Part shown: in pieces, positions 3,001 through 6,000 of the stretch
Layout: each line of letters begins with the position of its first letter
How positions within the stretch are numbered: the first letter of the stretch is position 1
IMG/VR virus record: IMGVR_UViG_2874945390_000003
From: a virus
Lineage: Duplodnaviria > Heunggongvirae > Uroviricota > Caudoviricetes
Length of the DNA: 32,454 nt
Reading direction: 5' to 3' (one strand)
Made by a program: the position numbers

Positions 3001-6000
3001 GCCATCAACGCCCACCACCGGAACGATGCCGTTCTGCTTATCAGGGAAGGCGTAAATTTCTTTCGTCCACGGATTAAGGCCGTACTGGTTGGCGACGATC
3101 AACAATGCGATGAACTGCGCATCGCTGGCATCACCTTTAAATGCCGTCTGGCGAAGAGTGGTGATCAGTTCTTGTGGGTCGACAGAATCCATGCCGACAC
3201 GTTCAGCCAGCTTCCCAGCCAGCGTTGCGAGTGCTGTACTCATCCGTTTTATACCTCTGAATCAATATCAACCTGGTGGTGAGCAATGGTTTCAACCATG
3301 TACCGGATGTGTTCTGCCATGCGCTCCTGAAACTCAACATCGTCATCAAACGCACGGGTAATGGCTTTTTTGCTGGCCCCGTGGCGTTGCAAATGATCGA
3401 TGCATAGCGATTCAAACAGGTGCTGGGGCAGGCCTTTTTCCATGTCGTCTGCCAGTTCTGCCTCTTTCTCTTCACGGGCGAGCTGCTGGTAGTGACGCGC
3501 CCAGCTCTGAGCCTCAAGACGATCCTGAATGTAATAAGCGTTCATGGCTGAACTCCTGAAAATGGCTGTGAAAATATCGCCCGCGAAATGCCAGGCTGAT
3601 TAGGAAAACAGGAAAGGGGGTTAGTGAATGCTTTTGCTTGATCTCAGTTTCAGTATTAATATCCATTTTTTATAAGCGTCGACGGCTTCACGAAACATCT
3701 TTTCATCGCCAATAGAAGTGGCGATAGTGAATTTAGTCTGGATAGCCATAAGTGTTTTATCCATTTTTGGGAACTCCTGGCTGATTAAGTACGTCGATGA
3801 GTCGTTTCCATCCGTCACGTAATTTACGGGTGATTCGTTCAAGTAAAGATTCGGAAGGGCAGCCAGCAACAGGCCACCCTGCAATGGCATATTGCATGGT
3901 GTGCTCCTTATTTACGCTTTAAATTGCTCCGTGTATTCACTCGTTGGAATGAATACACAGTGCAGTGTTTATTCTGTTGTTTATGCCAAAAATAAAGACC
4001 AACTATGCGGCCTCGGAAGGAAGTCCAATCATCTTATTCAAATCTTCTACCCGTAAAGCAGGAAGTGCTGTACTTGCTTTATCTGCTTCTTTTGGTAGCA
4101 ATTCTTTGCTTTCAGGCCAAACTTCAATAAGTCGCTTAACTGTTGTGACTGAGTTCAAAGCAGCCCATACATTTGATTCGATATCCTTTTTCCTGGCTTT
4201 AAGTTTTTGTTGCAATGCGCAGATTTCATCAAACCTTTTTGTTATTTCGTGTTCTGCGCTAAACATGTATTTATCTCTGGTCGGAGTAGGGAGCAATATA
4301 TCTTCGCCGTTGCCGTCTTTCCCATATGAATACCATCCAACCCTTCTGCCAGATACAGTCAGATAAATTGAAGTAGAACGAACATCGCATGAGTAAAATG
4401 AACATCCCATCTTTTCAAGTTCTTCACTTATAGCTACCAACTTGGATGATAACTGATCCACTTCCTCAGTTTTCTTCTTCCCGCCAAACGCAACAACTCT
4501 GGCGTCAAGTGCAAGCTGGTTCTTTAGCTTTGTTACTTCTTCAAGTTCAGTGAACACCCCGGACTTAATTAAAGCGTTGCGTGCTATTACTTCTTTTATT
4601 CTCGTTGTTAAGCGGATTGATGACATATTAATTCCTCTCAAATAAGTGGTTTGCTGCCTGATTTCATTTTCTGGCGACCAACACAAGTCATCTTGCTGTC
4701 AGCTGTTTGGATTTCCTGTAGCCTGCCGCGTAAAGAGCTACGTTTGGAAGACATACACCAGTTTCTGGTTGCTTATGTCCAAACTCATTCGCGTACACAA
4801 TGGCCGCTCGCTCCAGATTGCGTCTGTATTCTTTCTGCTGCCAGATCACGTCCTGTGCCATGAACTTAATTGGCTTAGCGTCTTCTATGCGCTCAGGCGT
4901 TTCGTGAGTACCTTTAGCCTGAATCTGCGCTCTGCTTAGAGTGGGGCGGTGTAATACTTCTGAACTTATTGCTTCTTCGCGGGCCAGTACGCCGTTAGCT
5001 AATGCCTTTGCCTTTAAACGCTCACGACGACGAGAACGTGAATTGCCTTTGAACTGAGTTCTGCGTGTCATATGGACCTCCTGATGAACTTTGGTGGTGT
5101 GGTAGGTGGGAGACCCATTTTGACCTGTTTCGGCCTACTTCAATTCGGCAATAGTCCCGCAGGCCTCGCCGCTTTACGTGCGACATATTCCCGTCCATGA
5201 ACCCTTCACCACACCCCAAAGTTCACTTTGGTTATTGCGCTTTGTCAGCGCCGTAGATTCATATTCGAATCGTTGTATATTCACCGCCCTGGTGAGTAGT
5301 GCGTCCTGCTGATGGCTTAAAGATAACCTAGGTTATAGCAGTGGTTAATAACTTAATTTATGGATTCTAATAAATAAGTTATAAGTGATGGATAATAAAG
5401 GTATTTTATTTTTGTAAATGTTGCGGATTGGTCGGTATTGGAAGGGGGGCGCTGTATTGCTGGCGTGTTGGTTCGTGGTTTACCGCATTTGCGGCTGTTA
5501 AATATGGGGGACGATCGCGAGGCAAAGAAAATCCGGCGCGGAAGCCGGGTTTGAGATTTAGTTATTTTCAGCAGCTCGGATAAGAGCGGAAGTGCTGACG
5601 AACATGTTCGAGCTCACCGAAACGTATGCGGCAGTAACTGCGCACATAAACTGGCTTGTCGTGTTCGTAGATGAAGTCATCGCGATTAACATCGTGAGCC
5701 ATAGCTTTTCTCCTGTTTTTGTATACAGCCTGTTTACCCGAACAGGTTGTAGTTTGTTGGGAGAACCGCTATCCTTGGCTTGCGGTTGCCAAGGGTGTAG
5801 CGGTAGGTAATCCTCCATACACTTCGGAAATACTGGAAATATTTCCGACCCCAAAAGCCCCGTTGCCGCGGGGCTTTATTCTTTTGTTCCGCCATCAATC
5901 ATAGCAAAAGATTCCACAATCAGACTGATACGCTTGGCTTCATCTTTTGTCAGGTCGCGAGGCAGGTTGCCAATGGTGACGATAAGATCTCCGCGCAATG

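Follow-up and report, generated by a model that had tools for sequence, protein, structure and literature searches.

SAM-II and preQ1-II type riboswitches are pseudoknotted translational riboswitches that sequester the Shine-Dalgarno (SD) sequence. The type I toxin mRNAs of hok/sok, zorO and tisB have long structured leaders in which alternative folds gate the ribosome-binding site (RBS), and in the com-mom system of phage Mu a small zinc-finger protein binds an mRNA hairpin and frees the initiation region. In phage lambda the slot between cI and oL holds rexA, rexB and the pLit promoter; no comparable structured RNA is known in this rex/Timm region. Here we describe an RNA of about 160 nucleotides (nt) encoded on the minus strand, at positions 5717-5878, of a 32,454-nt stretch of viral DNA (IMG/VR record IMGVR_UViG_2874945390_000003, Caudoviricetes). 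The whole stretch, referred to as the window, is from a lambdoid prophage of the Stx-phage-like kind and constitutes its early-left and immunity region. The RNA has a conserved pseudoknotted fold and lies directly upstream of an open reading frame (ORF) of 44 amino acids (aa). It is read here, with a probability of roughly one half, as a cis-acting pseudoknotted leader that would control translation of the small ORF in prophage moron cassettes.

Two arrangements of the element were distinguished. In the A-type, to which the window belongs, a phrog_2602 gene of 177-191 aa lies upstream and the 44-aa ORF downstream. In the B-type the upstream genes are usually Xre and ImmA/IrrE, sometimes others, with one copy located near HicAB and an integrase, and the downstream gene is a Cys-rich ORF of 46-49 aa. 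Like the SAM-II and preQ1-II riboswitches, the element is a 5' leader directly upstream of an ORF, with a pseudoknot-stabilised conformer, a predicted alternative pairing of the RBS and unrelated genes downstream, but it is larger, with four helices, a terminator-like first hairpin and no evident invariant pocket. The lambda cIII thermoregulator is also part of a phage mRNA and takes two alternative structures, one in which the initiation region of a small gene is exposed and one in which it is hidden; it is about 59 nt long, overlaps the start codon and lacks a pseudoknot, whereas the present RNA is about 160 nt long, lies wholly upstream and is unrelated in sequence. Shared with the type I toxin mRNAs are a 44-49-aa ORF, a long folded leader and a location in a prophage moron region near hokD. 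The peptides, however, lack the character of hydrophobic membrane toxins, the opposite strand yielded neither an antisense RNA gene nor a promoter, and the Rfam sok model matches a real hok/sok locus nearby rather than the element. As for the lambda rex region, the element occupies the same slot between cI and oL, closed by Timm, with a candidate defence gene (PDC-S43) as a neighbor. The likeness to com-mom lies in a small Cys-rich, zinc-ribbon-like B-type protein encoded beside an mRNA structure that may occlude the RBS; the ORF in the window differs in not being Cys-rich.

The conserved element comprises hairpins P0 and P1, a long bulged P2, a J2/3 linker, a P3a/P3 hairpin and the pseudoknot. 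The features of the window copy, and of the ORF and terminator that follow it, are given below.

5854-5877, minus strand: P0, a GC-rich hairpin (arms 5869-5877 and 5854-5862, loop 5863-5868)
5824-5848, minus strand: P1, a 9-base-pair (bp) stem (5840-5848 with 5824-5832) and 7-nt loop (5833-5839), which includes a 12-bp palindrome
5812-5823, minus strand: J1/2 and the 5' strand of the P2 base, AAGUGUAUGGAGG, in which GGAGG (5812-5816) resembles an SD sequence
5805-5811, minus strand: L2, a 7-nt bulge (AUUACCU) on the 5' side of P2, in which UUACC (5806-5810) is the 5' half of the pseudoknot
5765-5804, minus strand: middle and upper stem of P2, with ACCGCUA (5798-5804) opposite UAGCGGU (5765-5771)
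5773-5794, minus strand: upper stem of P2, CCUUGGC (5788-5794) opposite GCCAAGG (5773-5779), apical loop 5780-5787
5760-5764, minus strand: UCUCC, the 3' strand of the P2 base (invariant TCTCC in the DNA), which resembles an anti-SD sequence
5724-5751, minus strand: P3a/P3 hairpin, with P3a formed by UACA (5748-5751) and UGUA (5724-5727)
5729-5746, minus strand: P3 stem, CCUGUU (5741-5746) opposite AACAGG (5729-5734), loop 5735-5740
5734-5738, minus strand: GGUAA, the 3' half of the pseudoknot, which pairs with UUACC (5806-5810)
5700-5713, minus strand: initiation region of the 44-aa ORF, with the SD sequence GGAGAA at 5708-5713 and AUG at 5700-5702
5568-5702, minus strand: 44-aa ORF, MAHDVNRDDFIYEHDKPVYVRSYCRIRFGELEHVRQHFRSYPSC (phrog_21154)
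5525-5548, minus strand: intrinsic terminator that closes the unit (stem 5533-5548, then a U-run)

A covariance model was built on 14 B-type sequences, with the A-type subfamily of the window excluded. This model recovered 5717-5878 of the window, minus strand, at full length (104.6 bits, E 1e-25) and about 55 further copies. In an alignment of 28 distinct sequences, which was itself fitted to the covariance model, 91.0% of cells pair, against 83.2% in shuffles and at most 48.9% in slid registers. Double changes were observed at 27 of the 53 pairs, as compared with 12.7 +/- 1.9 in shuffled alignments, none of 500 of which reached 27, and the covariation score was 0.203 against 0.090. Within the B-type, the paired fraction is 91.1% of cells (at most 48.7% in slid registers), with double changes at nine pairs versus 2.8 +/- 1.1 shuffled. 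Divergent members exchange whole helices with pairing intact: P3a is CGCAA/UUGCG or CAAGG/CCUUG, and in locus L257 (relatives are denoted by such L numbers) P3 is wholly different, AUGUUU/AAGCAU, and still paired.

The pseudoknot spans 5-6 bp, with a bulge of 7-8 nt, and all 13 distinct combinations of bulge and loop pair. Cognate bulge/loop duplexes have a mean energy of -5.4 kcal/mol and non-cognate ones -3.7 kcal/mol, with none of 20,000 permutations as good. The compensatory sets are UUACC/GGUAA (window), AAUCCA/UGGAUU, AAUUCA/UGAAUU, AACCCA/UGGGUU, ACCCC/GGGG, AAUCUA/UAGAUU and AAACC/GGUUU, and further sets occur in L243 and L247. G.U cells outnumber A.C cells by 45 to 13, which indicates an RNA on the gene-sense (minus) strand. 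The segment 5717-5878 thus carries a conserved pseudoknotted fold. Pseudoknotted structured RNAs with such covariation are nearly always functional; those known from bacteria are for the most part riboswitches, ribozymes or protein-binding regulators.

The individual helices differ in how they are conserved. In P1, 9 of the 10 pairs have double compensatory changes across relatives (for example, CGGAA/UUCCG is replaced by UGGAA/UUCCA, CGAGU/ACUCG or GCAGA/UCUGC). The covarying pairs of P2 include CG:19/AU:5 and GC:13/GU:6/AU:5, and its upper stem varies in sequence in relatives while being retained as a stem. Double changes occur in both P3 (97% paired) and P3a (91% paired). At the base of P2, GGAG is invariant in all members and pairs with UCUCC at 5760-5764 in a helix that is 98% paired. 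Invariant unpaired stretches are few: GUAUGGAG, which lies between P1 and P2 and is common to all variants, GGUUCUCC, and in the B-type a GAC in the P2 apex.

This region had first been noted as a hairpin-rich non-coding stretch at 5703-5850 that might be a small structured RNA or a protein-binding site. The richness in hairpins was borne out, with folding z-scores of -5.2 (minus strand) and -6.6 (plus strand) relative to dinucleotide shuffles, none of 200 of which folded as stably, and the proposal of a small structured RNA gained the support of covariation, the pseudoknot and the covariance-model match (E 1e-25). The covariation analysis across related prophages that had been suggested as a check was run, and the helices were supported by compensatory changes. 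The bounds needed revision: the conserved RNA occupies 5717-5878 on the minus strand, directly before a 44-aa ORF with a good RBS. Two stem-loops named in the original prediction exist, with slightly different positions. CCTTGGC/GCCAAGG is at 5773-5779/5788-5794, one position from where it had been placed, and CCTGTT/AACAGG is at 5729-5734/5741-5746, its start having been given six positions away. The perfect 12-bp palindrome, GGAAATATTTCC, sits exactly where it had been reported, at 5835-5846, but is not a special feature, with seven such palindromes in the window against 7.96 +/- 2.8 in shuffles. Nor is it retained in relatives, L001 having GGAAATATATCC and L087 another loop; the conserved feature at this place is the 9-bp stem TCGGAAATA (5824-5832)/TATTTCCGA (5840-5848) with its 7-nt loop. 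Another of the seven palindromes is an oL1-like site, TAACCTAGGTTA, at 5324.

A bidirectional terminator had also been proposed at the edge of the stretch. The GC hairpin found there is flanked by runs of A and T, but it is better described as the conserved P0. Its stem, AAGCCCYG/CRGGGCUU, is almost invariant in all members, with the U-tract present or lost, and the pair at alignment columns 9-19 covaries (UA:20, CG:7). In a consensus scan P0 was called terminator-like only on the plus strand, with only TTTTGGGG following on the minus strand. After P0 the minus strand of the window has UUUUGGGG (four U), and relatives have CUUAGG, CUUAAGG or CUUCCG, with at most two U and the stem sequence retained. 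P0 adjoins the stop codon (5876-5878) of the upstream 177-aa gene.

BLAST placed the exact region in three Stx-phage records and, among 5426 complete E. coli genomes, in only six. A distant search matched 5729-5877, at about 71% identity, to sequence immediately 3' of ImmA/IrrE genes in some 50 further E. coli genomes. About 60 of the 5426 genomes, roughly 1%, carry the element. Pattern scans of IMG/VR and metagenomes, with further BLAST searches, gave more than 30 distinct variants, from E. coli prophages, the Klebsiella phages ST13-OXA48phi12.4 and ST846-OXA48phi9.2 and Yersinia phage YP3. The pattern AGTGTATGGAGN{35,60}GTTCTCC was too loose when run against genome contigs, where 1 of 120 matches was real (L201). 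The upstream stop codon abuts P0 in most cases, with a gap of -4 to +3 nt; the exceptions are a 300-aa family with a 63-nt gap and L247, for which no upstream ORF was found. All pairs of upstream gene and small ORF are co-oriented. Two copies are truncated. In YP3 (L003, 2974-3078) all that is left is P0, P1 and about 20 nt, joined to unrelated sequence beside a gin invertase gene, and L041 retains P0 to P2 without P3, which implies that recombination breakpoints fall inside the element. Neighbors of the cassettes include Xre-ImmA, HicAB, hok (hokD) and the PDC-S43 candidate defence gene.

No catalogued family accounts for the element. When the whole window was searched against Rfam 15 at the gathering threshold, none of the five matches fell in 5500-5900; at E<=10, the best match in 5400-6000 scored 21 bits against a threshold of 55 and was driven by the P0 hairpin; and five B-type loci searched at E<=0.1 gave no match on the element. 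Literature searches by nucleotide string, peptide string and keyword returned nothing relevant on it. The window copy belongs to a previously uncatalogued family of structured RNAs, carried by temperate phages and by prophages of Enterobacteriaceae.

Two unrelated ORF families lie directly downstream of this RNA, an arrangement common among portable regulators. Homology between the A-type and B-type small proteins was considered and rejected (hhalign probability 0.5%). The distance from the last helix of the RNA to the AUG of the small ORF is always 14-21 nt, or 5-14 nt when measured from the end of the model. The RNA and the small ORF have no terminator between them, and a strong terminator always lies 3' of the ORF. 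In the window this terminator region shares 90% identity with one annotated as Timm in phage mEp234 (EF120460), and the terminator at 5525-5548 corresponds to the Timm of lambdoid immunity regions. B-type proteins retain CxxCxxxC...CxC and are zinc-ribbon-like. Representative B-type ORFs are located as follows.

About 3830-3980 of L002, minus strand: B-type ORF
2665-2805 of L240: B-type ORF
1696-1845 of L243: B-type ORF

Relatives in both ORF families differ at synonymous positions, which suggests that both small ORFs are probably real genes. Protein searches with the small ORFs returned only two or three clusters, a paucity attributable to gene callers that skip small ORFs, and searches of Pfam, NCBIfam, PADLOC and the PDB returned no relatives. 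The B-type Cys-rich ORF, MAMGTCRKCG..CEIIFRY..PFPIPLC.CS, mostly goes unannotated in RefSeq E. coli genomes, with only two clusters in a database of 5.8 billion proteins. No metabolic link was found for the downstream small proteins in family searches.

The invariant UCUCC can pair either with GGAG or with the RBS of the ORF, and on this basis the RNA is read as a translational switch leader. The cis function and the switch mechanism that we infer for the structure would operate through the strand (G)GUUCUCC(C), which would have two mutually exclusive partners. In the on state, the pseudoknot-stabilised fold would pair this strand with the GGAG(G) look-alike and leave the true RBS free. In the off state, the strand would pair with the initiation region of the ORF itself (GGAGAA in the window), and translation would be blocked. 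Candidate inputs that might shift the balance are temperature, a metabolite, folding during transcription, or binding of a protein at the loops of P0 and P1. Transcription would most likely occur by read-through from the upstream gene past a leaky P0, which in the window would start from pRM/pRE. As in riboswitches, a conserved structured domain resembling an aptamer is found upstream of genes, together with what the model predicts to be an expression platform.

In the window, UUCUCC (5760-5765) is complementary to the SD sequence GGAGAA (5708-5713), and the alternative pairing appeared both in the free minimum-free-energy (MFE) fold and in duplex analysis. The free MFE was -79.0 kcal/mol, against -64.8 kcal/mol for the consensus-constrained nested fold, in which the pseudoknot is not counted. 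For most of the 16 variants folded, the window included, the free MFE structure pairs UCUCC with the initiation region and not with GGAG; for L076 the free and constrained folds nearly coincide. Initiation regions complementary to (G)GUUCUCC(C) contain GGAGAAC or GGAGAAUC, over 7-8 bp, in L087, L060, L247 and L257, UAGGAGA in L243, and GGGAAAC(C) with one bulge in the B-type. Judged from these sequences, the complementarity appears to exceed what ribosome binding needs.

Several observations weigh against a translational switch. The complementarity of anti-SD and SD strands in the B-type has a z-score of about 0 relative to shuffled initiation regions, since these regions are purine-rich, and the GGAG:CUCC helix is invariant and thus without covariation support of its own. 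Neither scanning nor inspection allowed a promoter to be assigned, in agreement with the original prediction: a sigma-70 scan found none in 5000-8100, and candidates picked by eye, TATxxx hexamers at ImmA stop codons and an extended -10 element, TGCTATGAT, at about 5893-5901 in the 177-aa gene, were unsupported. With a terminator-like P0, the predicted expression of the element would depend on read-through or an unrecognised promoter. No set of invariant unpaired bases resembling a ligand pocket was found, and J2/3 varies. Conservation is stronger in the RNA than in the downstream ORFs, which would also fit a self-standing RNA function, and a leader model does not account for the matching loops of P0 and P1.

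Loops of identical sequence in P0 and P1, over 6-10 nt, occur in about 10 of 17 distinct variants, and the shared sequence differs by lineage (CGCUAA, CUCUAA, CUGAGAA, CUGCAAA, CUGGAA, CUAGGA, UUGACG or UUUGCAG). The relatives concerned are L002, L035, L087, L201, L235, L239, L242, L243, L247, L003 and L041. The loops co-vary by identity and not by complementarity; only 0.4% of non-cognate combinations share at least 5 nt. The two copies are 29-31 nt apart, both are inverted together between L201 and YP3/L041, and in L243 and L247 the P2 apex carries the motif, UUGAC(G/A), as well. The window copy (loops 5863-5868 and 5833-5839) breaks the rule, its P1 loop being the reverse complement of an L087-type loop. 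Kissing between P0 and P1 was considered as the cause and rejected, palindromic cores being present in some loops (GCGC, UGCA, CUAG) but not in CUCUAA or CUGAGAA. No complementary loop partner was found within several kilobases, and the motif does not recur near xre or cI promoters. Such concerted evolution has no obvious known precedent among leader RNAs. It suggests a common partner for both loops, which could be a dimeric protein, an RNA or a tRNA-like ligand. That the element belongs to a new class of riboregulator with a trans-acting partner that reads both loops, and forms, together with its zinc-ribbon or 44-aa product, a self-contained RNA-plus-micropeptide module in lysogeny instead of a passive leader, is a speculative and rather unlikely reading; such a module could be a sensor, an abortive-infection or an anti-defence system attached to Xre-ImmA modules. 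The loops vary while the protein is nearly constant, which argues against specific autoregulation of the Mu com-mom sort.

The same loops bear on a different account, in which the element is a self-standing non-coding RNA (a protein scaffold or sponge, antitoxin-like, or with a defence or anti-defence role) and the small ORF is a mere co-transcribed partner or neighbor, its translation not being the main target of the RNA. The identical P0 and P1 loops, and some P2-apex loops, look like repeated sites for one partner, the RNA was kept while the downstream ORF family was swapped, and the cassette lies in moron and defence hot spots. The RNA nevertheless lacks a 3' terminator of its own, an RBS and start codon always follow within 14-21 nt, the truncated copies without P3 (L041 and YP3) are also without the ORF, and no nearby candidate partner that co-varies with the loops was found; we consider this account rather unlikely. 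The position of the element, exactly at the junction of the upstream stop codon and the small ORF, together with its compact pseudoknotted multi-helix fold and few invariant unpaired stretches, would also suit a self-cleaving or RNase-directed processing module that splits the upstream mRNA from the small-ORF mRNA and stabilises the new ends. This is highly improbable, given that no ribozyme family in Rfam 15 matched even at E<=10, that no catalytic core is recognisable and that a role of the conserved stretches as strands of the GGAG:CUCC helix is the simpler explanation.

A function of the DNA itself, as a protein-binding site or a recombination boundary without any RNA function, draws on the mosaic breakpoints inside the element in YP3 and L041, on the two loop sequences viewed as direct repeats of 6-10 bp spaced 29-31 bp (about three DNA turns) apart, and on the flipping of hairpin loops between relatives. 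Compensatory changes in five helices and in a pseudoknot that links segments about 70 nt apart speak for RNA instead, as does the excess of G.U over A.C (45 versus 13), a single-stranded, strand-specific signature. The protein-binding site first suggested for this stretch was not borne out as a phage-repressor operator, the motif ATAAC-N4-GTTAT being absent from 5700-5880, and the loop motif is not repeated near xre or cI promoters; a DNA-level role is very unlikely. An ordinary intergenic terminator with chance hairpins would agree with the chance frequency of the 12-bp palindrome and with the fit of P0 to the terminator consensus, but is refuted by covariation at 27 pairs, a folding z-score of -5.2, a model match at E 1e-25 and more than 30 distinct homologues, and is barely tenable. 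Other identities were also rejected. A plus-strand small RNA ending at P0, possibly a type I antitoxin, was an idea that arose from the A-run before P0, which makes a better U-tract on the plus strand; it disagrees with the G.U/A.C ratio of 45:13, the orientation of the flanking genes and the lack of a plus-strand promoter. A type I toxin-antitoxin system was rejected on the hydrophilic or Cys-rich nature of the peptides and the lack, on inspection, of a convincing opposite-strand promoter, and a type III (ToxIN-like) system on the lack of tandem repeat units, the two short identical loops being the only repeats, and on downstream ORFs of 44-49 aa without a family match.

Repressor operators (ATAAC-N4-GTTAT) were found at five sites with at most one mismatch, where 0.86 are expected by chance, and all five are confined to oL (5323-5361) and oR (7698-7760). 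From this confinement and the gene layout, the stretch 5703-5850 lies inside the cI-side transcription unit, where the element is situated between the 177-aa gene and the 44-aa ORF, at the end of the cI (pRM/pRE) operon and before Timm. Neighboring genes and other features of the window are as follows.

Minus strand: gam, kil and cIII
3852-3910, minus strand: Lambda_thermo, the cIII thermoregulator (Rfam RF01804), in the cIII region
4003-4686, minus strand: 227-aa protein with a full-length Nmad5 (nucleotide modification associated domain 5) domain (E 4e-70), directly downstream of N
4688-5071, minus strand: N
5876-6409, minus strand: 177-aa gene (stop codon 5876-5878)
6599-6940, minus strand: DUF3024 gene (113 aa), just downstream of cI
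6978-7715, minus strand: cI
Plus strand: cro
15046-15234, 30919-31098 and 31855-32058, plus strand: Rfam matches elsewhere in the window

Rfam matches at gathering level elsewhere are adjacent isrK and C4 antisense RNA, CssrB (230 bits) and IS009. The DUF3024 protein matches the PADLOC phage-defence candidate PDC-S43 (E 3.7e-42), and with it the interval between cI and oL looks like a stack of defence and moron cassettes. A strong terminator-like hairpin on the minus strand at 6416-6436, GCCTCATCAACTGTATGAGGC followed by TTTTTT, ends at the start codon of the 177-aa gene (6409). Its 3' arm carries the sole GAGG able to serve as the RBS of that gene, which may be another instance of structure-gated translation. 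The element was also considered as a nut site and rejected, given its place upstream of oL/pL, on the side of Timm that faces the cI operon; a P22-type boxB, GCGCUGACAAAGCGC, is found at about 5243-5257, downstream of pL. A nutL/boxA assignment for CGCTCTTA at 5582-5589 was dismissed likewise, this sequence being upstream of pL, coding and not conserved in L201. In the N leader downstream of pL, GCGCTGACAAAGCGC at about 5243-5257 (minus strand) is the likely nutL boxB, and we take it to be identical to the P22/H-19B-type boxB hairpin.

The element sits in lysogeny-expressed moron slots that accumulate defence and virulence cargo, and is tied to micro-ORFs mostly missed by annotation. The covariance model provides a handle for annotation and flags two unannotated families of small proteins. 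E. coli lysogens offer a tractable system in which to study how prophages may gate tiny genes at the end of a repressor or Xre-ImmA operon.

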